63,451 nucleotides of DNA from an uncultured archaeon (GTDB lineage: Archaea; Iainarchaeota; Iainarchaeia; Iainarchaeales; VGJJ01). Positions 2,647-63,451 of this stretch are shown here, piece by piece. Made by a program: the position numbers and the translations under genes. The notes below the pieces were generated by a model, which saw nothing but the letters and a program-made list of their open reading frames with translations, had not been told where the DNA came from and searched no databases. Numbering within the stretch: the first letter of the stretch is position 1; the number at the start of each line of letters is the position of its first letter. Location of the stretch: positions 1 through 63,451 of the forward strand of contig CAYIIU010000003.1 of assembly GCA_964363635.1 (NCBI GenBank), given 5' to 3'.

Positions 2647-3465
2647 CTATTTCTTGAAAACGAACAAATGCTCGTGCATAATCAAGTGAAAATTGTGCTT
2701 TTTGGATAGGCTTTTCCAGTATGGTGTTGCATTGCAGTTGTATTGCGCTTTGATGATGTCTTCTTTGAGTTTGAATCCCGATTCAAGGAATTGGTTCATC
2801 GTTTGATAGGCTAAAGATTGGTACATCCCTTTGAGCCGTGTATCTCCAATCAAAATAGCGCAATATTTCTCCGGTTTAAGCACGCGATGAAGTTCTTGAG
2901 CCACTTTTTTCATTTCAGCTAAAAATGCAGAAATATTGAGGTTTGAAAGGTCATCTTTAGCTGGAGTGTATTGGATAATATTAGCATAAGGTGGGTGCGC
3001 GACGACTAAATCAACTGAATTATCTTCAATTTTAGACAAATTTCGTGCGTCTCCTTGAAACAATTCAATATTTTTTGTTGAACTAAAATCTAATCGATTC
3101 CAAGTCAGCATCAAGGCGTCTTTGTTGGTGTCAATTCCAATTCCTTTTCGATTAAGTAATTTAGTTTCAATCATCGTTGTTCCGCTACCACAAAAGGGGT
3201 CGAGAACGGTATCATTTTCCTGTGAATATCGCAAAATCATGTTACGGGGGATTTGGGGAGCAAAATTACCCCGATATTTGGCATTAAATCCGTGTGTTGC
3301 CCAGTCTCCTCGTTTAGGAAATGAAAATGCAGTCGTATATTCTACTTCAAAATTTTCGGGTTGGAGTTTTTCAAGAATTGGTTTTTGGAGAGTAAATTCA
3401 CTCTCAGCGATAGTTATTTTTTTGCCAATGTTTTTTTCGTATTCTGAAACAGGGATTGATCGCAT
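2647..3465 (-). CDS. DNA methyltransferase (amino-methyltransferase, N6-A or N4-C)
   Basis: VLDPFCGSGTT (motif I) lies about 60 aa before DLVVAHPPYANI (motif IV, xPPY). It is co-oriented with the Dam-like methylase and a PD-(D/E)XK ORF. A Trm11-like RNA methylase cannot be fully excluded. Confidence 0.7.
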   Translation of the reverse strand: MRSIPVSEYEKNIGKKITIAESEFTLQKPILEKLQPENFEVEYTTAFSFPKRGDWATHGFNAKYRGNFAPQIPRNMILRYSQENDTVLDPFCGSGTTMIETKLLNRKGIGIDTNKDALMLTWNRLDFSSTKNIELFQGDARNLSKIEDNSVDLVVAHPPYANIIQYTPAKDDLSNLNISAFLAEMKKVAQELHRVLKPEKYCAILIGDTRLKGMYQSLAYQTMNQFLESGFKLKEDIIKAQYNCNATPYWKSLSKKHNFHLIMHEHLFVFKK

Positions 3466-3508
3466 AATTTATCAACAAACAGTTATGGTTTAAACCTACG
3501 TAAAATTT

Positions 3509-4327
3509 CTAATAACCTTGACGAATAAGCAATTCATTTACGGGGCCGCGTTTATCTGATTTACAGTTAATCATTCGATTTGCTTTAATGGTGCTTTTTT
3601 CAGAATCTGAAAAGAGTTCATCGATAATAGGAGTGTGAGAATTGCTAAGCATTACTTTTATACCATTCTTTGCCAAAGAAGTGAATGTTTCTTTGAGTCG
3701 AATTTGGTCATCAATCGTAAATGACTGTGAAGTATACGCGGTGAAACTCGCTGTTTTGGTAACGGGAAGATAAGGAGGATCAAAATACGCAAAATCATCT
3801 TTCTTAGCCAATCGAGTTATCTCAGAAAAATCACCGCAAAACAATTTTGCTTTTTGAAGCGCGCGAGACGCGTTTCGAATGCCTTCAACATCCACAATTT
3901 TAGGATTTTTGTATCTTCCAAAAGGAACATTAAATTTTCCTGATTTATTCTCACGATATAATCCATTAAACGCCGTTTTATTGAGATAGATAAATCGTGC
4001 GGCTTGTTCAACGGAATCTAAGGGTTCCCATTCACGGATTTTATAAAATGCTTCAGAAGTGTTAGAATATTTTCTCTTTTTCAATTCTTCAATTAGTCCA
4101 GTAGGCTTTCGTTTGACCACTTCATACGCGTTCATTAGTCGCGGATTCAAGTCGGCTAAAACAGCGTTTTTGATTCTCCCTTGATTAAAAAGTTCAAAAA
4201 AAAGTGCTCCACCACCAATGAAAAACTCATGGTAAGTGTTGAAAGATTCTGGGGCTTGTGAAAGTAGACTATTCAATAATTGTCTTTTTCCGCCAGCCCA
4301 CTTGATGAAAGGTTTAGCTGCAACCAT
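3509..4327 (-). CDS. dam: Dam-family N6-adenine DNA methyltransferase (probably GATC-type)
   Basis: The N-terminal PFIKWAGGKRQLL, FFIGGGALFFEL and FAYFDPPYLP motifs are the classic D12-class/Dam signature. Confidence 0.9.
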   Translation of the reverse strand: MVAAKPFIKWAGGKRQLLNSLLSQAPESFNTYHEFFIGGGALFFELFNQGRIKNAVLADLNPRLMNAYEVVKRKPTGLIEELKKRKYSNTSEAFYKIREWEPLDSVEQAARFIYLNKTAFNGLYRENKSGKFNVPFGRYKNPKIVDVEGIRNASRALQKAKLFCGDFSEITRLAKKDDFAYFDPPYLPVTKTASFTAYTSQSFTIDDQIRLKETFTSLAKNGIKVMLSNSHTPIIDELFSDSEKSTIKANRMINCKSDKRGPVNELLIRQGY

Positions 4328-4384
4328 GCAAAAAGAAGCCTTTTTCTCTTTATAAAACGCCTGAAAGTAGACCGCCGAAAAGAA

Positions 4385-4912
4385 CTATTCCATTGGCTCG
4401 GGAAGGCCAAAATAAGAGAATGGAATCGTTCCGAAAAAATATCGGCAACCACTATTTTCAACGTATTCTAATGCATCGCGATAGGACTCGTGTTGGAACC
4501 AGTCACTTAATACATACGCATAATGCACTTTCAATCCAAGAGGTTCAACGAGTTTACGATACTGTTTAATCTTGAAAGAACATGTTTGAAGTTTCTCATC
4601 AACTGAACCGGGAGTCTCCTGAAATTTTACTTCAATAATAAATAATTCTTTAGTAGCAAAAATGATGATTGCATCATCAGGTAGGAGTTTCTTTGAAATG
4701 ATCTTAGAATAGTCAATACCATTCGATTCTAAAAATTTTGAATAAAACTTATGCTTTGAATAAGTTTGAGCGACTTTTTGACCCTTGTAAAAAATTTCAT
4801 CTCCTTCAACAGAGTATCCAGGCGACTTACTCAATAACGTCTTGACATCCGTACGTGACTCAAAATTTAGTCCATTAGCAATCGGCCTTAGACTTCCTTT
4901 TCCTTTAATCAT
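4385..4912 (-). CDS. candidate type II restriction endonuclease, PD-(D/E)XK fold
   Basis: LLPDDAIIIFATKELFIIEVKFQ gives a D...E-x-K arrangement. The gene is first in the co-directional methylase cassette. The track start at 4930 is TTG, so I use the ATG at 4912. Confidence 0.5.
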   Translation of the reverse strand: MIKGKGSLRPIANGLNFESRTDVKTLLSKSPGYSVEGDEIFYKGQKVAQTYSKHKFYSKFLESNGIDYSKIISKKLLPDDAIIIFATKELFIIEVKFQETPGSVDEKLQTCSFKIKQYRKLVEPLGLKVHYAYVLSDWFQHESYRDALEYVENSGCRYFFGTIPFSYFGLPEPME

Positions 4913-5061
4913 ATCAAAAGGACAGATCAAGAAACTTAAAAAGAGGCGTTAAAAAATCGCCCCAAAAGCCCACTCACCGCGTCCAAAAAACCATCTCGCA
5001 ATGTTTCACATCCGTTTCCATCAAGATAGCAACTCTAACATGCTGCCGTATAATTTTGATA

Positions 5062-6524: not shown

Positions 6525-7592
6525 TTCCACGACCACAATCTTAGGAGCCTCGCGCGAGAGATTCCAACTCACTTCGGTGCAGTATGCTCCTGCATTTTCC
6601 ACCGCAATAAGGTCGCCCGTTGACAACGCCGCATGAATCTGCCCCAATTCATCCGAACCGAACATGAGAGGTCCTGCAAGACGGATACTCGTTTTTCGCG
6701 CGCCGGTTTCAGTTAATGCGAAGAAACGGTACGGATTCATGGTGATGCGCGGAAGGACATTAATCCCCGCATCAAGGAGAGCAAACGATTGTCCCTCGAC
6801 ATTTTTGACATGACAGACACGCGCAACTAATATCATCGCGTCTTCGCAAAGGAAGCGGCCGGGCTCCACGTATAACACGCGCGTACGCAGAAACTCTCCG
6901 AGGTGTTCACGAATGAGCACGGCGTATTGTTCTATTTTTTCTTTGCGCTCAATGAGGCTGGTTCGGCCGGGAAGACCGCCGCCGATGTCCACTCCCAACA
7001 GGAAAGGATATTCACGCACCACTTGAGCGAAACGAGAAATGAAATTCTTGTACGAATTGAGCGTTCCGCTCGTGCCCGGGTGGCCGTGGAGCACAACAAC
7101 CTGCAAACCTACTGTTGCGAGATGCTCAATCGTTTTACGAATCTCATTCGGAGAAAAACCAAAACGATGATTATCCATGCGCACGCGCAGACCCACAGAC
7201 AGCGGTTTCATTGGAGAAAGACGCGAGACTTGCTCCGCGTGCGATAATGAATCCAGAATGATGAGGGCATTCTGCGCGAGGGCCTCTTTTATTTCCTCAT
7301 CTGAAGAAGCACAGCTGTTGAAAATTTTCTGCCCAGAAAAGGATTTGACTGCTGCGAGTTCTCGTGCGGAAACGCATTCGAAGCCGGATTCCATTTTGTT
7401 CAACGAATGAAGGATTTTTTCATGAGGATTCGTCTTTACCGAGTAGCAAATGCGTACTTTTTGGGCAATGTTTTGCAGCGCGTCCGCGAGCTCAAAATAA
7501 TGCGTTTGAGAGACGCGGGGCATCAGCACCCAGAAAGGAGTAGGCTGTTCACGTGCAAGTTCAGCCAGCCATTGCTTATCGCGGGCGTTCAT
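6522..7592 (-). CDS. PLP-dependent Orn/DAP/Arg-decarboxylase-fold protein
   Basis: Motifs CYSVKTNPH (PLP lysine), HGHPGT, DIGGGLPG, EPGRFL and AGAYC. At 356 aa it is short for the family. Confidence 0.75.
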   Translation of the reverse strand: MNARDKQWLAELAREQPTPFWVLMPRVSQTHYFELADALQNIAQKVRICYSVKTNPHEKILHSLNKMESGFECVSARELAAVKSFSGQKIFNSCASSDEEIKEALAQNALIILDSLSHAEQVSRLSPMKPLSVGLRVRMDNHRFGFSPNEIRKTIEHLATVGLQVVVLHGHPGTSGTLNSYKNFISRFAQVVREYPFLLGVDIGGGLPGRTSLIERKEKIEQYAVLIREHLGEFLRTRVLYVEPGRFLCEDAMILVARVCHVKNVEGQSFALLDAGINVLPRITMNPYRFFALTETGARKTSIRLAGPLMFGSDELGQIHAALSTGDLIAVENAGAYCTEVSWNLSREAPKIVVVE

Positions 7593-7646
7593 AGAAAGGC
7601 TCCTTGGGCAAACCCTTAAAGCCGATACGGAACCCCATTCTAAGTG

Positions 7647-38543: not shown

Positions 38544-39734
38544 CTACACGCGCGGCTGGCTGATATACAAATAGTACGCCAGACCTCCCAGCAATGAGGG
38601 CATAATCAAAAAATAAAAAATGAGAACAATCGGAGGCGTGAGCGGGAGGCTTACTCCCAACGGAAGACCACCGTTGACAATCGCCGCCATGACACCCACA
38701 AAAACGGGCATGACGATTCCCATGAAAATGAAAATGACTCCGAAAAAATTTAATTTTTCCGAATAGTCGCGCACTTTCATACGCAGGTCGAATGAAACAT
38801 CGCTCGCAATGGTTCCCATAATCTCCGAAAGGTTTCCACCCGTGCGCAAGGCGCGCATAATATGCCGCAACGCATTGGCAAGAGGCTTCGACTGCGTGCG
38901 CGCGGCAAAATGACGCAGCGCATCTTTTGTATCCGTCCCTTCTTCAATCTCCGAAATCGTACGCGTAAATTCCTGCGAGAGCACCCCATAATCGGCCTTG
39001 GCAATGGTTTGAAGGGTTTTATACAACCCGATTCCGGCGCGCAGCTCGGTAGCCATATGCCGGAGTGCGAATGGAAGTTCAGTAGAGCAAATATCCCCGC
39101 GCTTTTGGGCATTGGATTGAGGAATAATAAAACCCACAAAAATGGCTACGAGCATGAGAAAAAACGCCCCAAAGAAGGGAATGATGTATGAAAGAGCAAC
39201 GACGGTCGGGCTTAGCACCTGCTGGCGCTGCTCCGCCAGATAGCGCAAAAGGAGGAAGAACAATTCTCCAAACGAAAAAGAGACGATAAGGACAATGACG
39301 GAAACGACTGAAATGAGCGCGACCCATTGCTTAGGAGAATAGGGCATGTTGGCCGAGTACAAATAATAATTCAGCGACTTCATTTGGGGAAGCGTCTCCA
39401 TAAATTTTCCAATGCGCTCAAACAGACCATGCAGAGAAAAATACAAGTGTCCAAGGATGCGGATGTAGGGGGATTTTCCATCACGCAGGGATTCGACACT
39501 TTGCACCTCTACATTTTTTTGACCCGAACCCGAAATAATCCCCTTCAGCTCGCCCAACTTTCCTTCCACTTCATTGAACTCCAACCCTTCCGTGCGGTAT
39601 TTTGATTTCATCCTATTTACAATGGTATCAATCTCACGGTCGGAAAGCTCTTCCTGAATCTCGTCTGCTGCAGAAAACTTTTTCTTTTTCTCCTCGATGC
39701 GGGAACGGATGCCGGAAAACTCTTCATTAGGCAT
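38544..39734 (-). CDS. T2SSF-domain platform protein (TadB/EpdJ-like)
   Basis: LPFALRHMATELRAGIGLYKTLQTIA...SQEFTRTISEIEEGTDTKDAL plus TM helices. Confidence 0.8.
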   Translation of the reverse strand: MPNEEFSGIRSRIEEKKKKFSAADEIQEELSDREIDTIVNRMKSKYRTEGLEFNEVEGKLGELKGIISGSGQKNVEVQSVESLRDGKSPYIRILGHLYFSLHGLFERIGKFMETLPQMKSLNYYLYSANMPYSPKQWVALISVVSVIVLIVSFSFGELFFLLLRYLAEQRQQVLSPTVVALSYIIPFFGAFFLMLVAIFVGFIIPQSNAQKRGDICSTELPFALRHMATELRAGIGLYKTLQTIAKADYGVLSQEFTRTISEIEEGTDTKDALRHFAARTQSKPLANALRHIMRALRTGGNLSEIMGTIASDVSFDLRMKVRDYSEKLNFFGVIFIFMGIVMPVFVGVMAAIVNGGLPLGVSLPLTPPIVLIFYFLIMPSLLGGLAYYLYISQPRV

Positions 39735-42136
39735 TAGACATTCTCCAAAAAATCCCGAGACAATTGAGAGACGGTTTTCATATCGCGCACGTTCCTATCC
39801 ACCAGACCTTGAAGGAATCGTTCGCGTCTTTTTAACTCCCCTTGCATTTCGACCTGAGTTTTACCCGTTAATTGAGCCAACCGCTCAAAATATTTCACAG
39901 GCATGTTGGTGCGGGACATTTCGTCCTTGACCGCATCCCACTCAAACACGGTTTCGGTGCGGGCCTTTCCCTCCAACACGCCGTGAACCTCGGCAATCTC
40001 CATGATTCTACGATATGTCCCGCGCTGCGAAGAATGAAATAAGTTCTCAACGATGACAAAATTCAAACCCGAAAGCATGACTTCAGGAACACTCATGGGA
40101 GGACTGGTTACGCGTACAAGGGTTTCCTGCGCCGAATTGGCATGAATCGTTCCCATCGAATTACCTACAATTATCCCCTCGGCCACAAAATTATGGGGCA
40201 TTTTCCCTGTTTCGTTGGATTCGTTTACCGTTAGATCATACACGAAACCAGAATAAGATTTCACATCAATTGAAACAATTTCATCCATGACAACATCCGA
40301 ATCCAAAACGGAGTCGCCCAAAAAATTCTGTGTCCAATCACTTATATCATTTTCGATACGCAGTGGACAAGCAACGTGCTGACCAATAACTAATGTTTCT
40401 GCTAATCTCCGAACGATTTTCTCTTCAAAACAATAAAACGGATGATTTCCCGTCGCAGTAATTTCGTTACCAGAAGCCAATTTTATATGGTATACCATTC
40501 CTTCAAACGGCTTACGACGAGCCTGCACAATGGAAGACCGGAATAGTTTCCCATTGGAATCAATCGAAGTAATGTGCTCATTCTCAATCGAACAAACATC
40601 CCATTCGCCTTCTTTCCATGAAGAATGGTCCAGTTTTGAATCGACAAACGAACCGATTTCCAAGATACCGGATGTAAGGGGTATTTTGGCATCTCCAATC
40701 AAACAACCATCGTGACCCGTGTTCATCGCGGTGAACAGGGAGAACGCTTCATCATGGCGGACTTCACCCACAATGATTCGGTCCGGGCGCATACGCAAAC
40801 TATTTTTGGTGAGAATGTCCAAGGTTATTTCTCCCTTTCCTTCCAAACCGGGAGGGCGGCCTTCCAAACGAATCCAGTGGCGCAATGGCAACGAGAGTTC
40901 GGACGTGTCTTCAATGGAAATAATACGCTCATTCGAGGGAATGAAGGAACACAAGACGTTCAATAAGGTTGTTTTTCCCGAAGAGGTTCCTCCGGAGATG
41001 AGAATGTTGGCCGGCTGCGTTCCAAGACCATCCACGCACAACCACAAAAAAGCGGCCACATCCACGGAGAGCGTTTTGTAATTGATTAAATCAACAATCG
41101 AATACGGGTCCGAGCGGAACTTTCGAATGGTGAGAGTTGAACCGGACACCGAGGCGGGGGGAATCGTCGCATTGACACGCGAACCATCCGGCAAACGAGC
41201 ATCCAAGAGAGGGGAAGAAATATCCACGCGACGCCCAACCTCACGGGCAATTCGATTAACCAAATCCTGCACTTCATTGTCGTTTGTGAATTCCACATTC
41301 GTAATCATCATGTCGTATTTGCGGTGAAACACATACACGGGAACATTTGGACCTATTACCATGATTTCTTCGAGCTTATCATCCTTGATCAGGGAGTCAA
41401 TGAGACCATACCCGACCATCTCCGATACCACGGCCTGCGCATAAAAATCAAACTTGGTGGAAGGAACTTTCAATTCGGGAGACGCACGCAAAATCTCCAA
41501 CACCTGCTGCGCGTACACATTTCTTTTTTGCTCCGGGTCGCGAATACGATACGGGGTAATACTGATGAGCCGCGTCGCAGCCTCTTTGAGCGTGTTGATG
41601 ATGGCCCGCTCACTCACGGTGGGACGTGCCACTGGAATGGTGTAATACATGAGGGGCTCGCCCTGCACGCGGTAAATTTTGGCGTCGCCATACTCATCGA
41701 TAAGCGTTTTCGGCTTGTCCGACATCAACTGTTCAAACGTGTCGACTTTTCCTTTGGACATTTCCTGCAATTGCTGCACGACTTTAGAAGGCGAAGCAAA
41801 CGCGGAGGACGTGGGACGAGGAGCAATATCCTTATCGGGAGTGGGAACAAATTCAGGAATGGAAATAGAAGCCGTTTCGACACGCGACTCCATACGTGCA
41901 ACGGGGGAAACGGAAGGAATCCCTCCGGCAGAAGTGTAGGATGAAGGAGGAACAAACCCAGTGTTTCCCGAACTGGAACGAAGGGCGTTGATTTTACGCA
42001 CCAACTCGTCAATGTTTTCTCCCGCAGGAGCGGCAGGAATTTCGGTTTTGACGGAAGAAACCTTAGGCTTCAATGAAGCGGGGGAACTACCCGATGGAAC
42101 GAGCGGTTTTACTTGGAGAGAGGTGTTTTCACTCAT
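39734..42136 (-). CDS. CpaF/TadA/VirB11-family type IV filament assembly ATPase, intein-containing precursor
   Basis: Walker A ISGGTSSGKTTLLN, Asp box/Walker B RPDRIIVGEVRHDEA, and a His-box AMNTGHDG...SMGTIHAN split by 182 aa. The N-terminal extension of about 140 aa is S/P-rich. Confidence 0.9.
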   Translation of the reverse strand: MSENTSLQVKPLVPSGSSPASLKPKVSSVKTEIPAAPAGENIDELVRKINALRSSSGNTGFVPPSSYTSAGGIPSVSPVARMESRVETASISIPEFVPTPDKDIAPRPTSSAFASPSKVVQQLQEMSKGKVDTFEQLMSDKPKTLIDEYGDAKIYRVQGEPLMYYTIPVARPTVSERAIINTLKEAATRLISITPYRIRDPEQKRNVYAQQVLEILRASPELKVPSTKFDFYAQAVVSEMVGYGLIDSLIKDDKLEEIMVIGPNVPVYVFHRKYDMMITNVEFTNDNEVQDLVNRIAREVGRRVDISSPLLDARLPDGSRVNATIPPASVSGSTLTIRKFRSDPYSIVDLINYKTLSVDVAAFLWLCVDGLGTQPANILISGGTSSGKTTLLNVLCSFIPSNERIISIEDTSELSLPLRHWIRLEGRPPGLEGKGEITLDILTKNSLRMRPDRIIVGEVRHDEAFSLFTAMNTGHDGCLIGDAKIPLTSGILEIGSFVDSKLDHSSWKEGEWDVCSIENEHITSIDSNGKLFRSSIVQARRKPFEGMVYHIKLASGNEITATGNHPFYCFEEKIVRRLAETLVIGQHVACPLRIENDISDWTQNFLGDSVLDSDVVMDEIVSIDVKSYSGFVYDLTVNESNETGKMPHNFVAEGIIVGNSMGTIHANSAQETLVRVTSPPMSVPEVMLSGLNFVIVENLFHSSQRGTYRRIMEIAEVHGVLEGKARTETVFEWDAVKDEMSRTNMPVKYFERLAQLTGKTQVEMQGELKRRERFLQGLVDRNVRDMKTVSQLSRDFLENV
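40160..40705 (-). mobile_element. mini-intein (182 codons) in the pilus ATPase
   Basis: It starts at Cys478 (TGT, 40703-40705; CLIGDAKIPL). It has ITATGNHPFY (TxxH-like block B) and GFVYDLTV...HNFVAEGIIVGN ending in Asn659 (AAT, 40160-40162), followed by Ser+1. Excision restores GHDGSMGTIHAN. Confidence 0.8.
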
Positions 42137-48755: not shown

Positions 48756-49121
48756 CTACAAGAGCTTTAAATGACCCGTGTATTTTTTGAGTTCGTTCTC
48801 GTTCGCGGGGCCAATACCAATGCACGTTTTCGTGTTGGGAGCTATTTGCGTGTGGCCGGCATCGGTGATGAGGGCGGCGGGAAATTTTGATTTGACTTGT
48901 TCGAATAATTGCAACAATTCCTTTTCATTGTCAACTTTCACCACAATTTTCTGCATCCCTTCATCCAACCATTCTTGATACTCGTTTCCCCACTTTCGCT
49001 CCTGCGATTTGAGGAATGCGGCGATGGACGCATGGGCAACTTGAGCGCAGGTCTTCCCATTTCCCATTTTGAGGTCTTTGCGAACGACTAAAACTTGCGT
49101 GTACATGCTGACTTCACCCAT
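48756..49121 (-). CDS. pth2: archaeal-type peptidyl-tRNA hydrolase Pth2
   Basis: Motifs VVRKDLKMGNGKTCAQVAHAS...KIVVKV...ITDAGHTQIAPNTKTCIGIGP. Confidence 0.9.
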   Translation of the reverse strand: MGEVSMYTQVLVVRKDLKMGNGKTCAQVAHASIAAFLKSQERKWGNEYQEWLDEGMQKIVVKVDNEKELLQLFEQVKSKFPAALITDAGHTQIAPNTKTCIGIGPANENELKKYTGHLKLL

Positions 49122-49162
49122 GGGAAGTATTTAACTCTGACACATTTAGCATGGACACTAGA

Positions 49163-50170
49163 CTATCGATATTTTTCCAAAAGCTTGCGCATGCGAGCAA
49201 GAGCTTGTCGATTTAGTTTTGAAACATAGCCCTTGGTCACACCCATTTCTACAGCAACCGCTTTGAGAGACTCCCCAAGGACGTTATGAGCAATGATAAC
49301 ATCCTGCTCTTTACTGGGAAGACGATCATACGCGAGCAATAAAACCTCTCGCCATCCTCTTGAACCGACTTTTCGACTGGCCAATAAATCTTCTATATCA
49401 AAAGGCGACCGCTCCCCACCGGATTCAAGCGAATGAATAGAGGCAATTCGACCCTTATTGCGCGAATACCCCTCCGCTGCATTCCTTGTTCGAAATACAT
49501 CTCCCACGGACTGCTTAACATATTGCCGCAAAACTTTCAAAAAATCAATTCCAAGATCAGCATTAAACCGCTGACATTTAAGCATCAAATCGGCTTGGAT
49601 ATCGGAATACAACTCATCTACTTCCTGCCTCAATCTATTAGGATGAATATAGTTTCTTAACGCATTTCTAATTACACCTCTCACGAATACTTTATTTTTT
49701 TCGATTAAAGCAAACGCTTCTTCTCTCGTTCGATAAATGGGGGGAGTTGGACGAGTATTAATAACACCGCCTTTCGAAAGGAGAGCGGTAACGCGATTCG
49801 CATTTTCTTTTCCGGCTGCGGCGGTTAATTCAATACGAAACGTTTTGAGGCCTTTGATGTAAATACGATAGTCCGTAGAGGTCAGTTCAGCCGCGTGTTT
49901 TTTGTAAATTTTTTCAGCCGTTTCTAATGCTTGAATACGGCCTGCGACGAGCGTCCGATAGGCCCTAAAAAAACTAATTCGTTCAGGTGGGGAGAGACGG
50001 GAAGAAAGAAGTCGAACTTGTTCTTCGACTGCTTTTTTCGTGGCCGGAGAACGTTTAACGCGCCCCGGTTTAGACCAGTGAGGGATGCGCGTTTGGGCGG
50101 TGGATAAAAAACGAAGATTGGCCGCTTGATGGGCCTTCATTAAATAATTAGGAGTGCTTTTCGGGGGCAT
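49163..50170 (-). CDS. sigma-70-family-like protein (region 2-like + region 4 HTH) with an N-terminal extension of about 150 aa
   Basis: ELYSDIQADLMLKCQRFNADLGIDFLKVLRQYVKQSVGDVFR is region-2-like. LPSKEQDVIIAHNVLGESLKAVAVEMGVTKGYVSKLNRQALARMRKLL is a region-4-type HTH. Confidence 0.6.
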   Translation of the reverse strand: MPPKSTPNYLMKAHQAANLRFLSTAQTRIPHWSKPGRVKRSPATKKAVEEQVRLLSSRLSPPERISFFRAYRTLVAGRIQALETAEKIYKKHAAELTSTDYRIYIKGLKTFRIELTAAAGKENANRVTALLSKGGVINTRPTPPIYRTREEAFALIEKNKVFVRGVIRNALRNYIHPNRLRQEVDELYSDIQADLMLKCQRFNADLGIDFLKVLRQYVKQSVGDVFRTRNAAEGYSRNKGRIASIHSLESGGERSPFDIEDLLASRKVGSRGWREVLLLAYDRLPSKEQDVIIAHNVLGESLKAVAVEMGVTKGYVSKLNRQALARMRKLLEKYR

Positions 50171-50220
50171 TCACTCACTAGACGATTGAGCTATTAATAA
50201 GATTTCGGAATGCCCAAAAA

Positions 50221-50631
50221 TTACTGATTCGGACGATAAATTTCCGAATCGGGATTGGAGGCGTTGTCCGTGGCCTGCGTCTGCGCGGGGGCGGGGATGG
50301 ACTCCCCACTGGCCATTTTGACATCGCGCAAGACGACTGTTTTCGTGACGCCGTTATCCTCCCACAAGGAGGAGAATTTCTTGGACTCATGGAGACCCAA
50401 CCATAATTGACGCACGGTGGGGTGCTCGTATCCTTTGAGGGTGTACATTCGGCTGTATCCCAGCAAAATACGATCTCCTTGAATGGCTTTAATGGTAAAA
50501 AGAGGGGTTCCATCCTTCAGTTGTTCAAGTGTTTCGCCCTCGTTCACGGTAAAAGACTTGGTATCGCGCTTCTTGGCAAAAGGAGGCTTCCAATCCTGCA
50601 TTAACGATTCGACTTCAACCACGGCGTGCAT
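50221..50631 (-). CDS. hypothetical protein (co-directional, upstream of the sigma-like gene)
   Basis: 136-aa ATG ORF. No family recognised. Confidence 0.45.
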   Translation of the reverse strand: MHAVVEVESLMQDWKPPFAKKRDTKSFTVNEGETLEQLKDGTPLFTIKAIQGDRILLGYSRMYTLKGYEHPTVRQLWLGLHESKKFSSLWEDNGVTKTVVLRDVKMASGESIPAPAQTQATDNASNPDSEIYRPNQ

Positions 50632-51867: not shown

Positions 51868-52434
51868 CTAAAATAAGTCAATCAATGGAACAAAGACAAA
51901 CTTTTTTTTGCGATAACCAACCAGCAGCAAATTGTCGGTACGAATCCCCGTGCGCTTATGCACTAACTCGGCGGCAGTGGCCAATTGTTCAATCGTCGTA
52001 CCATTTTTTTGGGCGAGGCGACCAAAATACAACTGCCCGCGCCGAGTGGTGTGCTCCAAAACCTCTTCGACAGAAGGATAGTCTTCCTTGGACATTGCAA
52101 CAATATTTTTATCGATAGCATATGCCTTAGGCATGATGAGCTGATACTCTTTGGGGGGATAGACTTTGTTGTGGGACTTTACCTTACTAAAAATAATACG
52201 CAATGTTCGCTGCGCACTCGCATCATGAACCCACTTAAGAGCAACTGGAATCACGGACGTTTTAGACAAATCAATTTCACGCACACGCGTACCACGGGGA
52301 AAATGCTCATGAGGATTTTCTTCAACAATGCCACGGTGATCAATATTCCTAAATTGATTAAACGCTCGACGAATACGCTCAGCATGGTAACGAAGACGGT
52401 CTAAAACGCGACGAGGGATGCGGCGAAGAACCAT
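51868..52434 (-). CDS. hypothetical protein between nurA and herA
   Basis: 188-aa ATG ORF with an Arg-rich N-terminus. The antisense + ORF 51985-52404 is less protein-like. Confidence 0.45.
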   Translation of the reverse strand: MVLRRIPRRVLDRLRYHAERIRRAFNQFRNIDHRGIVEENPHEHFPRGTRVREIDLSKTSVIPVALKWVHDASAQRTLRIIFSKVKSHNKVYPPKEYQLIMPKAYAIDKNIVAMSKEDYPSVEEVLEHTTRRGQLYFGRLAQKNGTTIEQLATAAELVHKRTGIRTDNLLLVGYRKKKFVFVPLIDLF

Positions 52435-54095: not shown

Positions 54096-55070
54096 CTATT
54101 CAATCGACCCACCCAGCTTTTTGATGATAGCATGTTTGTTCTCTTCAATGATTTGATGTATTTCCATTCCACGGTTTTCAAGGCATAAAAAGACAAACTT
54201 GGAGAATTTTTCAAATTCTTTTGATAATTGCACTCGCTCAAGCAGGGCAATGCAGCTCGCACGATTGGAAAGATTGACAATCGCACGCGGGAAACCATTC
54301 TTTTGCAGCATCCAATTTAGGATCTCCCTGCCCGTGCGCCCATTCCCGTCTTCGAAGGGGTGAATCAACTCAAATCGCGCGTGAAACTCGGAAGCAAATT
54401 CAAGCGGGTGCATTTTTGGGCTATTTTTATTCATCCACTCCAACAACTTTTCCATTTCACTTTCAACTTTATCCGCTGGAACTGGCCTTACTTTTGATGC
54501 CGTAATGAACATAGGCCCCAAACGATATTCTCCAGGATGTTTCTCCGGAAATCCATCCAAAATAGCAGCGTTGATTTTTTTGATGGTGCGTTCATTGATT
54601 TCATTAATCCTCTTTGATACCTCTGCTGCTTTTTTCATATTTTCAATTTCGCGTATTTCATCCACTTTCTTTCCGGCAACCGAAGAACCCTTTGTCAGCA
54701 CCAATAAGGCTTCTTGCAGACTTAAAGAATTTCCTTCCACCGAAGCGCTCCCTTGCGCATAACGCACAAATTCATCTTCCTTGAACGATTCAAATCCGCT
54801 GGGAAAAAAATCCGATAGGAGAGAATAGTCTATTTTCAACCGTTCCAAGGACAGAACGTCAGGAAAAGATAATACGCGTGGATGAAACTGCTCCTGCATC
54901 TGTTTAGCCTGTTCCAGTGTCTTCTTTTGGATAAACAATTCAAGCCCTTCTTTCATTCTTCCCAAGGCTTGCCCTTTGTTCCCAAGGAGAACACTTATCC
55001 TCTTCTTTTTCACTCGGTCTTCTAAATAGAAGTAAGGGGTACCCTTGATTCGGCGCTTTGAAATAAACAT
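54096..55070 (-). CDS. Fic-domain protein (probable AMP-transferase, auto-inhibited class)
   Basis: Canonical Fic motif IHPFEDGNGRTGREIL and an upstream SASVEGN that fits the inhibitory (S/T)xxxE(G/N) helix. I use the ATG at 55070 because the track start is TTG. Confidence 0.88.
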   Translation of the reverse strand: MFISKRRIKGTPYFYLEDRVKKKRISVLLGNKGQALGRMKEGLELFIQKKTLEQAKQMQEQFHPRVLSFPDVLSLERLKIDYSLLSDFFPSGFESFKEDEFVRYAQGSASVEGNSLSLQEALLVLTKGSSVAGKKVDEIREIENMKKAAEVSKRINEINERTIKKINAAILDGFPEKHPGEYRLGPMFITASKVRPVPADKVESEMEKLLEWMNKNSPKMHPLEFASEFHARFELIHPFEDGNGRTGREILNWMLQKNGFPRAIVNLSNRASCIALLERVQLSKEFEKFSKFVFLCLENRGMEIHQIIEENKHAIIKKLGGSIE

Positions 55071-55260
55071 AGAATAAGTTAACACCAAAAAGGTTAAAAA
55101 ATGGTATTTTGGCTAAATTTGGTGTTAACCACGTAGAGAAGGGTTACGGGAATTTCCGCTTTTGGAAGACGGGCTCGCTGACGTTAGTGCACAGTGTTGT
55201 TCAAATCACCCATCTTTAGCACACCTCACAGATTATATAGAAAATACTCGTGCTTCCTTT

Positions 55261-55985: not shown

Positions 55986-57293
55986 ATGTCTCCCCATACG
56001 TTCAGTCTAGTGGCAGTGTCGGCCCGCGATGAGCGAAAAACCATTGATGTTACGTTCACGAACAACTCACAAAAAAAGACTAAACCATTTCCATTTTTCC
56101 CATCCTTTTACCTCCCCCGCACTTCCACTACTCCGTTTGAAAAAATACTTGAAACCATTTCCAAACCTCCATTGCAAACCATTCCGCACCCGCACAGCAC
56201 GCAAGTCATGTGCGGCACGTGGGGGGAATTGAAAAACGTGGCGCAACAAGTTCATACAAGCACGAATTATTTTCCCCAATTAATCGAACCCGAAAGGCAA
56301 TTCTTACTCACGCAAAATTGGAGATACTTTCAAACATTTGATGAAAAGCTTTCACCGCTCAATGAAGCGTTCATGGATACACTCATTCCGGGATTTGTCG
56401 AACCATTGTACACTACCCTAAACGGCGCACGCGCGCACAACCCAAAAATAGAACAGGAACTCCGTGAGCGCATGGTCGCCAGTCATGAATTATTCCTTCC
56501 CTACACGGATGCACCCATTTCATCCAACGAACAGATAGAAATGATTCTCAACAACTACATGTTCGCCAACCACCGCGCAACACCATTGCAAAAAGGGAAT
56601 TTTACCACGACTTCAATGTGGTCACACGCCCAACGGACCCGCGCAAATGAAATTTTTTCTCAAACACCTATACAAGGGGAAGGAAAATGCGAGTGTTGTA
56701 AACCTACTAACCTTTTTTACGCGTCATTACAAGACGGAAGTATCGTGGACACGCGCGTGACACAAGATGGAGTGTACATTCACACGAACAACATCACTCA
56801 AGGCAACGATTACCACGAAGCACATGCGGGAAAAGAAAAACGCTTGGCGCGACAGCGAGAGTTTGGACTTTCAACCATTCCAATTGGCCCGTTATTTCGC
56901 AACGAAAAAATATCATTATCACTTAACGAGGCGCGGAATGAAATCAAACAAGGAACCCTTGCGGCGGAAATTAATCTGACGAATGCATATTGGAAATGCG
57001 CTAAACAACCATTCGTGTTTGATAAAATTCGCCAAAGTCTTGCCGCGCGAGCACAGCTGCATGACGTGCAACAGAACGCGCTCACGCAACCCTATTTGAC
57101 GCAGTTCCAGCTCGCCTACACGTCTCAAGTCCAGAAGGACCCACTCGTGCAATTGCATACCCTCGCGGCGCGCCGGACGAAGGATTGGGAGTTAAATCTG
57201 GCCAACCACCTGATTTTCCACCCCACCGAATGGAGAGAGGCCACCCACGCCCAACTCTTAGAAAAGGCTATCCTAGGAACTAAGCTACTTTAA
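55986..57293 (+). CDS. hypothetical protein (faint family-B-polymerase N-terminal-like strings)
   Basis: The ATG at 55986 begins a 435-aa ORF. KPFPFFPSFYLP and YFPQLIEPERQFLL resemble PolB N-domain strings by eye only. No polymerase motifs were seen. Confidence 0.5.
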   Translation: MSPHTFSLVAVSARDERKTIDVTFTNNSQKKTKPFPFFPSFYLPRTSTTPFEKILETISKPPLQTIPHPHSTQVMCGTWGELKNVAQQVHTSTNYFPQLIEPERQFLLTQNWRYFQTFDEKLSPLNEAFMDTLIPGFVEPLYTTLNGARAHNPKIEQELRERMVASHELFLPYTDAPISSNEQIEMILNNYMFANHRATPLQKGNFTTTSMWSHAQRTRANEIFSQTPIQGEGKCECCKPTNLFYASLQDGSIVDTRVTQDGVYIHTNNITQGNDYHEAHAGKEKRLARQREFGLSTIPIGPLFRNEKISLSLNEARNEIKQGTLAAEINLTNAYWKCAKQPFVFDKIRQSLAARAQLHDVQQNALTQPYLTQFQLAYTSQVQKDPLVQLHTLAARRTKDWELNLANHLIFHPTEWREATHAQLLEKAILGTKLL

Positions 57294-58350
57294 TTATTTT
57301 TTGCAAATTTTCCACAAACTCTCCGCTATCCACAAAGTAGTTAGGATATGCTTTTCTCAAGTCAGTAGTGGTATCTGCCCCAACTAAAACGACATCATAT
57401 TCTTTTCTTCCTCTAAATCTTTTTTCAGCTTCAGCATAGGCTAGGATTGCTTTTCCTTCCTGGCTTTTTGTATACGACGTAAAGTTCAATTTTTCGCCCA
57501 CAATATCCAGTTCGAGTAAAAAAAATTGCACTTTCTTTTGTTTAGTCTTCATTTCCTGTTCAAAAACTCTTATTGCAGCTCCCCAACCAGTCATTTTTTT
57601 TATTACATTAAGTTCAGCCTCTTTTTTCTTAATTTGTGAGTATAGCTCTTTTTCGTCAGTAGGGGTATTTGGAACCGGTGCACAGCCTTCCATTTTGGCA
57701 AAAGCAGTGCTTACTAATCTAAAAAATTCCATCCACTCTTCTTGCCCTTCATTAGACTTTATGGCTTGCCGAGTGAAGAAATCCACTGTTTCAATAGCTG
57801 TTGCCCAAATGTGTTGCAATTTTGATCTTATCTGAATTTCAACAAGCAGACCATTATACTCTTTCTTGCCTTTATCACTAAAATATTTGTAAATTATATG
57901 AATACTTCTGTAACCATCTTGTTTCGGGTTTTCCACATAGTCTTTCTCTCCGACTCGCTTATGCTTCAAATCCCCTTTTAGATAATAATCCTGATAAAGT
58001 TTTCTTACTTGTGAAACGTTTGCCAAAACTGCTCTGCACCCACCAATATCTTGCATTTGAGACAATTTCATCGTCGGAGGTCTGCCGTTATAGCTTCGTT
58101 TTAGTTTATTGATAATTGCAGGAACACGCTTCAGCCGCTGTGCGGTAAATGCATTTTTATCGACGCTGGTTGCTTTGCTTTTTAGTCTGATTTTGAATAC
58201 ATGCATCGGGTAACTGTGGATAGCCCTCCAATTATCTAAAATTTCGATTGCCGTATTTTTTTCTTCTTCGGAGCTAGATTCACTAATCAAAATATCGCCT
58301 GCACGGTTAATCCGTTCTTTTGAATACCCCTTTGGTTTTGTCCAAGCCAT
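57280..58350 (-). CDS. stand-alone RelA/SpoT-family nucleotide pyrophosphokinase (SAS/toxSAS-like) with a C-terminal extension of about 140 aa
   Basis: Synthetase motifs are in order: QRLKRVPAIINKLKR, MQDIGGCRAV, DGYRSIHIIY and VEIQIRSKLQHIWATAIE. No HD hydrolase domain is present. Confidence 0.85.
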   Translation of the reverse strand: MAWTKPKGYSKERINRAGDILISESSSEEEKNTAIEILDNWRAIHSYPMHVFKIRLKSKATSVDKNAFTAQRLKRVPAIINKLKRSYNGRPPTMKLSQMQDIGGCRAVLANVSQVRKLYQDYYLKGDLKHKRVGEKDYVENPKQDGYRSIHIIYKYFSDKGKKEYNGLLVEIQIRSKLQHIWATAIETVDFFTRQAIKSNEGQEEWMEFFRLVSTAFAKMEGCAPVPNTPTDEKELYSQIKKKEAELNVIKKMTGWGAAIRVFEQEMKTKQKKVQFFLLELDIVGEKLNFTSYTKSQEGKAILAYAEAEKRFRGRKEYDVVLVGADTTTDLRKAYPNYFVDSGEFVENLQKIIKVA

Positions 58351-61646: not shown

Positions 61647-62813
61647 ATGTCAAACCCCTATGACCCCCAAAGTCCGGCTAAACCAGATTATTTTGGAGGC
61701 CGAAAGCACATCCTTCACGTGGCTAAGGAACGAATCGAAAAAGCAATCGAACAGAAGCAATCCGGCGGAATACTCGTTTTTGGCCATCGTGGCGTAGGGA
61801 AAACATCCCTCGTCAATAAAATCATCAGCCTGACCAAAATAGAAGAGAAAGATGAAAACAGACTTACTATCTATCGAAGATTAAGTAAAACAACATCGGA
61901 CAATGAACTTTATCAGATTATTACCGAAGACCTTGTTGAAGAAATTAATCATCGAAAAAATATTGTAGATAAAGCTAAAGATATTGCAAAAACAATCACG
62001 TCGGCAAAAGCTTTTGAAATTGAATTCACCATTTCCGAAGAGTTCAAACAAAAAAGTGCTTTCCATAAATGGCGCACGCTCATACGAACATTAAAAGGAG
62101 TTGAATTCATTCTAGTAGCAATTGATGATGCAGACAACTTATCACATGAAGCATTGGGAGAATTAAAAACAATTATAGAAGAACAAAATGCGACACCAGT
62201 TATTCTAGTCGTCTCCGGCGGAATTGAATTTGAATCGAAGTTGGTAGAGGAATATTCTCCAATTGCACGTGTTTTCTCTGGAGCAAGTTTTAACCTTGGG
62301 GAATTCACCCTAGAAGAAACAAAAGAAGTTCTAGAAAAACCACTCAAAAATAATCCAACCGTTAGATGGACAAACGATGGAATACTAGAGGTTCAAACTC
62401 TCTCGAGAGGATACCCCTATCTTGTCCAATGCCTCGCACATGCTAGTTTCATAGAAAATGGAACAATTGACCGAAAAAGAGTCGCTGATTCACTTGATGC
62501 AGCGCTCAAACTGGGCAGCCCTTGGTTGAACCATGAATTAAAAAGTGCTTCAGACACCGATATTGGCTGTTTTCTTAAAATCATTGACTTAAATCTGGAC
62601 ATACTCAAAAATAGTGACATGGCAAAAGTCGGCGTACAGCCGGTTTACATCGGCCGACTCGTTAAACTAAAAGTGGTTGAACAAATAAGTCGAGGAAGAT
62701 ACAAATTGATTAAACCACCAATCGTTGCATTCTACCATAGCCTCAAAAGAGGACTTTTACCAGCCATCAATCGAAAAGGAATGCAAAGTAAACTGTCAGC
62801 CGAAATTAAATAG
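61647..62813 (+). CDS. orphan AAA/Arch_ATPase-like NTPase with a C-terminal winged-helix-like region
   Basis: YFGGRKHIL...ILVFGHRGVGKTSLVNKI (Walker A), ILVAIDDADNL (Walker B) and RGYPYLVQCLAH. Confidence 0.75.
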   Translation: MSNPYDPQSPAKPDYFGGRKHILHVAKERIEKAIEQKQSGGILVFGHRGVGKTSLVNKIISLTKIEEKDENRLTIYRRLSKTTSDNELYQIITEDLVEEINHRKNIVDKAKDIAKTITSAKAFEIEFTISEEFKQKSAFHKWRTLIRTLKGVEFILVAIDDADNLSHEALGELKTIIEEQNATPVILVVSGGIEFESKLVEEYSPIARVFSGASFNLGEFTLEETKEVLEKPLKNNPTVRWTNDGILEVQTLSRGYPYLVQCLAHASFIENGTIDRKRVADSLDAALKLGSPWLNHELKSASDTDIGCFLKIIDLNLDILKNSDMAKVGVQPVYIGRLVKLKVVEQISRGRYKLIKPPIVAFYHSLKRGLLPAINRKGMQSKLSAEIK

Positions 62814-63396: not shown

Positions 63397-63451
63397 GGCC
63401 CCGTAGCTTAGTCTGGATAGAGTGTCGGGCTTCGGACCCGAAGGTCGGGGG
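63397..63451 (+). tRNA. tRNA-Arg (anticodon UCG), 3' part cut by the window edge
   Basis: Folded by hand: acceptor GGCCCCG, U8, D-arm GCUU/AGUCUGGAUA/GAGU, anticodon stem UCGGG/CCCGA, loop CU-UCG-GA, variable AGGUC, and the start of the T-stem GGGGG. A/T-rich boxes lie at 63351-63381 upstream. Confidence 0.8.

Follow-up and report, generated by a model that had tools for sequence, protein, structure and literature searches.

A sigma-like gene with deeply divergent alleles in a fixed chromosomal slot of Iainarchaeota-type archaea

What is a gene resembling a bacterial sigma factor doing in the chromosome of an archaeon? The question is raised by a 63,451-nucleotide stretch of DNA from an uncultured member of the Iainarchaeota (contig CAYIIU010000003.1 of GenBank assembly GCA_964363635.1; the whole stretch is called the window below), in which an open reading frame (ORF) for a protein of 335 residues – the sigma-like gene – lies between the gene for PTH2 and an ORF of 136 residues, the small ORF. 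A first-pass annotation, made from the sequence without database searches, had read the C-terminal end of this protein as sigma region 4, a segment ahead of it as region 2 and the first 150 or so residues as an unrelated part, and had judged such a protein unexpected in an archaeal information-processing neighbourhood.

Sigma-70-type genes in DPANN archaea are in fact a published, if unexplained, oddity, since archaea initiate transcription with TBP, TFB and TFE. One family of them, fam00359, was reported in 2021, mainly from Woesearchaeota, without anti-sigma factors and with its mechanism left open (Castelle et al., PMC8204110), and genes annotated as rpoS have been described on DPANN viral contigs and in a prophage (PMC12647753), so that 'unexpected' was an overstatement. 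What is new here is the architecture of the family and its behaviour in populations, not the existence of sigma-like genes in DPANN archaea. In the literature searched we found neither the N-terminal-domain architecture, nor the restriction to Iainarchaeota-type archaea, nor the fixed slot, nor the combination of presence/absence with incongruence that is described below.

A sigma-70 module behind an orphan N-terminal domain

Judged by homology, the sigma-like gene encodes a member of the sigma-70 family that is bacterial in ancestry and has kept the sigma-2/linker/sigma-4 fold, with the two-domain module occupying residues ~149–335. TIGR02937, the NCBIfam model of the sigma-70 superfamily, aligns practically from end to end (model positions 5–165 of 165, residues 154–331) and reaches 47.2 bits, above its cut-off of 42.9, while PF04545, the Pfam model Sigma70_r4, reaches 30.5 bits over residues 282–329 (gathering score 24.1) and matches all six full-length members of the family introduced below (best E = 8e-12). 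The Pfam model Sigma70_r2 (PF04542) on its own finds no match in the window protein and matches only two of the six members (best E = 1.7e-5). An hhalign comparison of the family profile with 24 genuine sigma factors, however, spans both domains, with a probability of 99.85% and E = 1e-30 over 187 columns (columns 149–343).

Structural searches lead to the same families. The AlphaFold2 (AF2) model of the full protein, with a predicted local distance difference test score (pLDDT) of 74, has only sigma factors among its top Foldseek matches in the PDB – SigH, SigE and SigL – and a sequence search of the PDB with the window protein returns sigma-4 of WhiG and FliA as its best matches. Taken together, the TIGR02937, hhalign, PDB and Foldseek matches identify a two-domain sigma-70-family protein rather than a generic helix-turn-helix (HTH) protein. 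The sigma models, which span two domains, also outscore those of stand-alone HTH proteins (LuxR/GerE, KorA): KORA stays below threshold in the window protein (21.8 against 26.7), and GerE matches a single one of the six members, at E = 0.054.

The expectations of the first-pass annotation were largely met by these results. Both peptides that it had quoted lie in the ORF (residues 186–227 and 284–331); region 4 is recovered by PF04545 in every member, and the peptide taken for region 2 falls in register with regions 2.1–2.3 of genuine sigma factors, so that this assignment holds too, although PF04542 alone is silent in the window protein. A generic HTH lacking any region 2, which it had named as the outcome that would undo its proposal, is not what TIGR02937 and hhalign find, as they cover both domains.

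Membership, assigned by homology, is of the sigma-70 superfamily and of no specific subfamily, and any sigma function is putative. The specific ECF models all stay below their cut-offs (TIGR02984, 26.4 against 183.75; TIGR02985, 23.5 against 126.4; TIGR02983, 17.9 against 141.55), and Pfam Sigma70_ECF matches weakly, in three of the six members (best E = 0.0014). The canonical region 2.3 consensus, F-x-T-Y-A-x-x-R-I, aligns in hhalign to F-L-K-V-L-R-Q-Y-V, a position at which ECF sigmas deviate as well. No second sigma-like ORF was found within the 63-kb window.

An exhaustive search of 1.84 billion cluster representatives with hidden Markov models delimits the family to six full-length members of 321–352 residues, and all members of the family belong to close relatives of a metagenome-assembled genome (MAG) labelled 'Ca. 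Iainarchaeum'. All other matches, at E = 7e-10 and weaker, are ordinary sigma factors that align over the C-terminal 190 residues only, and among the best 150 matches of the full-length profile search there is none to the N-terminal part alone. Modelled by itself, this N-terminal part (135 residues) forms a five-helix bundle with an AF2 pLDDT of 87.5; fold searches with the model yielded nothing significant either in the PDB (best E = 0.43) or among the viral structures of BFVD (best E = 0.27), in agreement with the earlier view of it as unrelated to the remainder, no relative in sequence or fold having come to light.

It is this orphan domain that the family conserves best. Residues 1–100 retain a mean pairwise identity of 45–48% and hold 23 of the 32 invariant positions, among them R20, F21, R28, W32, R37, K39 and R40, and the first 57 residues are very basic (isoelectric point, pI, 11.5). 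Sigma-4 is intermediate at 33%, whereas sigma-2 and the linker are lowest at 24%, which makes sigma-2 the least conserved folded domain of the family; the linker, rich in insertions and deletions in the family alignment (A3), falls below a pLDDT of 50 at residues 234–272. As the N-terminal domain is both family-specific and the conserved part, it is likely to be an interface. The recognition-helix motif of sigma-4 differs by allele (KGYV, ESYV, KSQV or ESRV), the arginine position of the canonical 'ESRV' being Y, Q or R, which suggests a shifting specificity. The reading frame is intact in all seven copies known, of which the six complete ones measure 321–352 residues; the gene is therefore not a decaying one.

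A divergent, dispensable gene in a conserved slot

The chromosome around the sigma-like gene is archaeal. Across its whole length the window carries genes such as two Orc1/Cdc6, RFC, Cdc48, Hjc, archaeal DnaG, PTH2 and HerA/NurA/Rad50, as well as an archaeal prepilin peptidase with pilus genes, and no bacterial rpoB or rpoC was found in its 63 kb; this context excludes mis-binning. The loci compared here, numbered with the prefix L, were found through scans anchored on the neighbouring GTPase gene and on the small ORF; anchoring on the GTPase recovered five related MAG contigs, and the nearest MAG carries the label Candidatus Iainarchaeum (phylum Iainarchaeota, one of the DPANN lineages). Pattern scans of genome and metagenome contig collections for sigma-like sequences came back empty, which reflects a limitation of the pattern and not absence of the family.

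The order small ORF, sigma-like gene, PTH2 is common to the window, L001, L002, L008 and L016/L017, and in L006, which is cut at the contig edge, the C-terminus of a sigma-like protein stands directly before PTH2. All six copies of known context thus sit in the same chromosomal slot, and the six assemblies come from different sequencing projects. A contig made chimeric with bacterial DNA at this position, the other outcome that the first-pass annotation had named as fatal, is ruled out by this recurrence of the slot in six independent assemblies; with archaeal genes on both sides over 63 kb and an archaeal promoter layout at the sigma-like gene itself, we regard its probability as negligible. 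The archaeal information-processing context was correctly recognised, as were the neighbours: beside PTH2 (E = 1.3e-41), profile searches confirm an MMR_HSR1/RsgA GTPase (E = 7e-22) and NurA (E = 3.8e-10).

Within this slot, the sigma-like gene is accessory and dispensable, one fixed position between housekeeping genes being either occupied or empty. It is absent from L005, L007 (on the same contig as L010), L009 and L012, in which the small ORF lies directly before PTH2; the spacer between them, free of any ORF, measures 50–62 nucleotides in L005, L007 and L009 and ~150 T-rich nucleotides in L012. How little else need differ is seen from L001, with the gene, and L007, without it: their flanking genes are 91–95% identical.

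The first-pass annotation had also proposed that the sigma-like gene forms a co-directional pair with the small ORF, and had asked whether homologues are always paired with it. The small ORF is indeed a co-directional, conserved gene – a real, lineage-specific core gene, 89% identical between the window and L002 with its low-complexity C-terminal tail included, and without a match in Pfam, NCBIfam, PHROG or PADLOC – but the pair is not an obligate one, since the small ORF stays, adjoining PTH2, in the four relatives that lack the sigma-like gene. An obligate two-gene module is accordingly rejected, and so is an anti-sigma role for the small ORF, a core gene kept where there is no sigma-like protein to oppose. 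The neighbours, PTH2 and this core gene, gave no match to anti-sigma families in Pfam or NCBIfam.

The wider surroundings vary too. In L008, positions 6569–7637, between the sigma-like gene and PTH2, hold a duplicated PTH2 5′ end (MYSQVLVVRNDLKMGKGK...) followed by a 312-residue ORF with LAGLIDADG motifs (PF14528, E = 4e-5), which looks like an insertion of the homing-endonuclease type at the same slot. Between PTH2 and the GTPase, L001 carries an S-adenosylmethionine (SAM) methyltransferase (3394–4056) and L002 an EamA transporter (1778–2650), and no such cargo occurs in the window, in L005 or in L007. Variation extends over the entire stretch between the small ORF and the GTPase.

Where the sigma-like gene is present, its divergence is out of keeping with that of its flanks. 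Among the same loci, identity amounts to 77–96% for PTH2, 71–94% for the GTPase, 63–96% for the small ORF and 73% for NurA, against 26–44% for the sigma-like protein; non-synonymous divergence (dN) is 0.60–0.97 in the sigma-like gene and 0.02–0.25 in the flanks. Between the window and L002, for instance, the GTPase is 94% identical and the sigma-like protein 26%. The comparison of L002 with L016 localises the effect: their flanks differ by a synonymous divergence (dS) of 0.6–1.1 and a dN of 0.02–0.07, compared with a dN of 0.89 in the sigma-like gene, and DNA identity runs at 80–97% over the small ORF with its stop codon and over the TATA box of the sigma-like gene, drops to ~40% over the whole sigma-like ORF and recovers at the start of PTH2. 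In this pair the divergence begins and ends at the edges of the ORF.

Nor do the trees agree. With neighbour-joining (NJ), the sigma-like sequences separate {L002, L008} from the rest in 500 of 500 bootstraps, whereas the flanks support {L002, L016} in 492 and {L001, L008} in 476 of 500, and these splits are mutually incompatible. The fragmentary copy of L006 tells the same story, as its sigma-4 is 43% identical to the L008 allele and 30% to that of L001, while its flanks are nearest to L001 (92%). Divergence that does not track relatedness in this way points to the replacement of alleles, by recombination through the conserved flanks, or to long-lived polymorphism, either of which would appear to fit the sequences better than would simple vertical inheritance; in most pairs dS has reached saturation. 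Extreme divergence, presence/absence polymorphism and allele incongruence are all additions to what the first-pass annotation had noted.

That annotation had further described the gene as A/T-richer than its neighbours, and this is borne out, though the difference is modest (GC 0.447 against 0.471 for the window). It is clearer in GC content at third codon positions (GC3), which is 0.38 in the sigma-like gene and 0.55–0.62 in the adjacent core genes; this value is the eighth lowest of the 68 genes in the window (z = −1.6), and GC3 lies below that of the flanks in five of five genomes (0.35–0.46 against 0.42–0.64). The deviant composition and the patchy distribution fit the earlier suggestion of a horizontally acquired gene, and of an accessory one.

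The gene is set up for archaeal transcription, probably into a leaderless or near-leaderless mRNA. A TATA-like box at −29 points to an archaeal promoter of this kind, and the same geometry is found at PTH2, NurA, GTPase, HerA and a RelA-like gene, in keeping with an A/T peak at −30 to −26 across the window. At the other loci, too, each sigma-like copy has its own A/T box, in a spacer of 29–50 nucleotides. Homologues of PTH2 begin with MYTQ or MSYTQ and have their own TATA at −29, and the true start of PTH2 in the window is probably the ATG at 49106 (MYTQ...). The coordinates of the features discussed are collected in Table 1.

Table 1. The sigma-like gene, its parts and the boundaries of its slot (positions in the window)
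Feature	Positions	Strand	Basis and remarks
Sigma-like gene	49163..50170, stop codon included	(-)	ATG start, 335 residues, pI 10.3
TATA-like box of the sigma-like gene, TATTAATA	50192..50199	(-)	−29 from the ATG; purine-rich CGAAA just before
Orphan N-terminal five-helix bundle, residues 1–135	49766..50170	(-)	Alignment A3, AF2 model
Sigma-2-like domain, regions 1.2/2.1–2.4, residues 149–232	49475..49726	(-)	hhalign in register; TIGR02937 coverage; Pfam r2 sub-threshold
Linker, residues 233–270, position of region 3.2 or ECF linker	49361..49474	(-)	Probably disordered
Sigma-4 domain with HTH, residues 271–335	49166..49360	(-)	PF04545; WhiG/FliA PDB matches
136-residue core gene (small ORF), upstream slot boundary	50221..50631	(-)	Not part of the sigma module; 63–96% identity across loci
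PTH2, downstream slot boundary	48756..49121	(-)	PF01981, E = 1.3e-41

What the protein may do

The reading that we put forward, and to which we give about an even chance of being correct, is that a sigma factor has here been domesticated into an exchangeable DNA-binding regulator and no longer works as a sigma; of the three proposals made in the first-pass annotation, that of a gene repurposed as an ordinary regulator is in our view the most likely. A sigma-70 protein of bacterial ancestry would have gained a lineage-specific, basic five-helix N-terminal domain and become an accessory gene in a fixed slot, within a narrow clade of Iainarchaeota-type DPANN archaea and with an archaeal TATA promoter of its own. 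The slot would have come to be occupied by deeply divergent alleles, cleanly lost from some genomes and distributed in discord with the phylogeny of their hosts. Rather than as a canonical sigma factor, the protein would act as a sequence-specific DNA-binding regulator through the helix-turn-helix of sigma-4, while its conserved N-terminal bundle may contact a conserved cellular partner or nucleic acid, or mediate oligomerisation, and the fast-changing surfaces of sigma-2 and sigma-4 would follow changing targets. In this scheme we infer that the protein binds DNA and lacks sigma activity, and what its N-terminal domain does.

In bacteria, sigma-2 is the domain that docks on the polymerase and melts DNA. 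We favour a regulator over a sigma factor because this domain is here the least constrained and the region 2.3 motif has not been kept, and also because the recognition residue varies between alleles and the gene is dispensable. Several points nevertheless weigh on the other side. DNA binding by a free sigma-4 is assumed, and ECF sigmas, too, diverge in regions 2.3–2.4, so that sigma function need not have gone with the canonical motif; a bacterial-type RNA polymerase core or a partner gene is possible elsewhere in the genome, outside the inspected loci. As for exchangeability, L002 and L008 form the two longest branches of the sigma-like tree, and their grouping by NJ could be due to long-branch attraction, just as an episodic burst of rate could mimic allele replacement; the sample, moreover, is small, with seven sigma-like sequences and about ten loci.

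The observations – of homology and architecture, of distribution, divergence and incongruence, and of promoter geometry – have also to be set against other explanations. The gene might be cargo of mobile elements or viruses, a transcription or immunity factor of the DPANN mobilome that is repeatedly deposited in a recombination hot spot by pth2 and whose rapid divergence would be that of an arms race; we consider this unlikely, yet worth taking seriously. It agrees with the presence/absence polymorphism, with the allele incongruence and with the low GC3, which is shared with the restriction–modification, SoFic-like and PDC-S33-like genes of the window, and it would suit a slot as variable as this one, with the LAGLIDADG-like ORF and duplicated pth2 5′ end of L008, the methyltransferase of L001 and the EamA gene of L002. 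The protein also matches the phage sigma families 351 and 1740 of PHROG (E = 4e-10 and 1.4e-7), and the rpoS-annotated genes of DPANN viruses and a prophage (PMC12647753) lend some precedent. Yet the PHROG matches are no stronger than those to cellular sigma factors, and the contigs of IMG/VR, the phages of GenBank and the plasmids of PLSDB yielded no relative of the family. Neither an integrase nor an att-like repeat nor any further element gene is present in the slot; the cassette is one of a single gene, and in six of six copies of known context it occupies the same chromosomal position. Membership of a defence system was rejected, PADLOC having no match for the protein. An 8-nucleotide direct repeat, GTCTAGTG, does bracket the ORF exactly (49156–49163 and 50176–50183, minus strand) and occurs three times in the window against 0.23 expected, but when the two junctions are shuffled locally p is 0.10; a target-site duplication was rejected and the repeat treated as chance, and no flanking repeat is found at any other locus that carries the gene. 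A donor lineage cannot be named, as the nearest sigma factors outside the family match only at E of at least 7e-10; they come from short contigs that look bacterial, in one of which the gene adjoins an Hpt-domain gene and in another RmuC.

Three further explanations concern function. The protein might be a working specificity factor for the archaeal machinery, its sigma-2-like domain or N-terminal bundle docking on archaeal RNA polymerase or on TBP/TFB/TFE, with a variable sigma-4 providing allele-specific promoter choice; one candidate docking site would be the clamp coiled-coil, a feature common to all multisubunit RNA polymerases on which sigma-2 docks in bacteria. That the full sigma-2/linker/sigma-4 architecture and not sigma-4 alone has been kept speaks for such a role, as does a conserved N-terminal domain, which implies a conserved partner; the helix of region 2.2 retains part of its acidic–hydrophobic pattern, E186, D190 and I191 being the same in the window protein as in P0002 and still similar among the remaining type-A members, and the mechanism of DPANN sigmas was left open in the published account (PMC8204110). 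A sigma-2 of 24% identity, the least conserved of all, is however the opposite of what a polymerase-docking surface would lead one to expect, and close relatives dispense with the gene. Archaeal initiation is, besides, fully served by TBP, TFB and TFE, and we hold this role to be improbable. That the gene is a relic without function, loosely constrained and about to be lost, seems to us distinctly improbable: dN near saturation, repeated losses and atypical codon usage speak for it, but all seven frames are intact at a divergence that would have left neutral DNA full of stop codons, the N-terminal 100 residues keep 45–48% identity and 23 invariant positions, and every copy has kept its own TATA box. 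We see, finally, a very slight chance that the protein is an effector on the RNA polymerase of a bacterial partner, that is, a canonical sigma factor used outside the archaeal cell. Its fold is canonical for a bacterial sigma, its fast evolution is typical of proteins of host interaction, and the 2021 paper (PMC8204110) describes DPANN archaea as often symbionts. Neither a signal peptide nor a context associated with secretion was noticed, however, and nothing in the locus ties the protein to export; the determinants of region 2.3 are not conserved, and a large basic N-terminal domain of this kind is not known from sigma factors. The known hosts of DPANN archaea, moreover, are themselves archaea.

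As a putative regulator with exchangeable alleles, the sigma-like gene invites comparison with hypervariable regulatory loci such as the MAT idiomorphs of fungi and the pherotype loci of bacteria. By analogy, it would share with them deeply divergent alleles of a (here putative) DNA-binding regulator between conserved flanks, sharp boundaries of divergence and, apparently, an allele phylogeny discordant with that of the genome; it differs in that null (empty) alleles are common and that it has no known cognate signal, receptor or mating function, and the likeness is one of pattern only. Bacterial two-domain (ECF/group 4) and group 3 (FliA/WhiG) sigmas likewise join sigma-2 to sigma-4 through a flexible linker. 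Unlike them, the sigma-like protein is found in an archaeal host, carries a 135-residue orphan basic N-terminal bundle, matches no subfamily model and does not keep the region 2.3 motif, and its gene is dispensable, hypervariable and without an adjacent anti-sigma. With fam00359 (PMC8204110) it has in common that a sigma-70-type gene without anti-sigma resides in a bona fide DPANN genome; compared by description only, the published family is mainly from Woesearchaeota whereas the present one is Iainarchaeota-type, and the paper does not describe an N-terminal domain, a fixed slot, presence/absence polymorphism or allele incongruence. The rpoS-annotated genes of DPANN viruses (PMC12647753), also compared by description, are similarly divergent sigma-like genes of the DPANN gene pool, but they lie on viral contigs, whereas the gene described here stands alone in a chromosomal slot.

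The locus thereby offers a natural experiment, as near-identical genomes have the gene, have a very different allele of it or lack it altogether, and it provides handles on the published oddity in the form of a defined architecture with a likely interface and of wiring to an archaeal promoter. Should the protein after all engage the archaeal polymerase, the textbook divide between bacterial and archaeal initiation would be blurred, and an archaeal polymerase would for the first time be seen to work with a specificity factor of the sigma type, kept as exchangeable, idiomorph-like alleles. Should it be an HTH regulator only, it would make a clean case of a sigma factor domesticated after transfer between domains.

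Other features of the window

Some other genes in the window are of interest in their own right. On the minus strand at 57280–58350 lies a gene for a RelA/SpoT-domain protein of 356 residues (GC3 0.33), matched over its full length by the PADLOC model PDC-S33 (E = 4e-121) and thus a candidate for a bacterial-type, alarmone-synthetase-like defence protein in an archaeon; a Fic-domain protein is encoded at 54096–55088 on the same strand (PADLOC SoFic, E = 1e-31, and several PDC-S04 models), which suggests that the two belong to a small defence islet at 54–58 kb. The cluster of lowest GC3 in the window (0.29–0.35), at 2647–4930 on the minus strand, comprises an N6/N4 DNA methylase, a D12-class adenine methyltransferase and a PD-(D/E)XK nuclease, and is probably a restriction–modification module.

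Between NurA and HerA, on the opposite strand, there is an ORF of 188 residues (51868–52434, minus strand; low GC3, 0.43) without a family match, for which a weak homologue was detected in L007 (124 bits) and none in L005 or L008. The type IV pilus/secretion ATPase (T2SSE) encoded at 39734–42136 on the minus strand contains an intein (Intein_splicing, residues 520–659, E = 5e-17). At the far end of the window, on the plus strand, a second Orc1/Cdc6-like AAA gene (61647–62813, GC3 0.32) adjoins a tRNA gene that is cut by the window end (63397–63451), and the two together may mark the edge of an integrated element.

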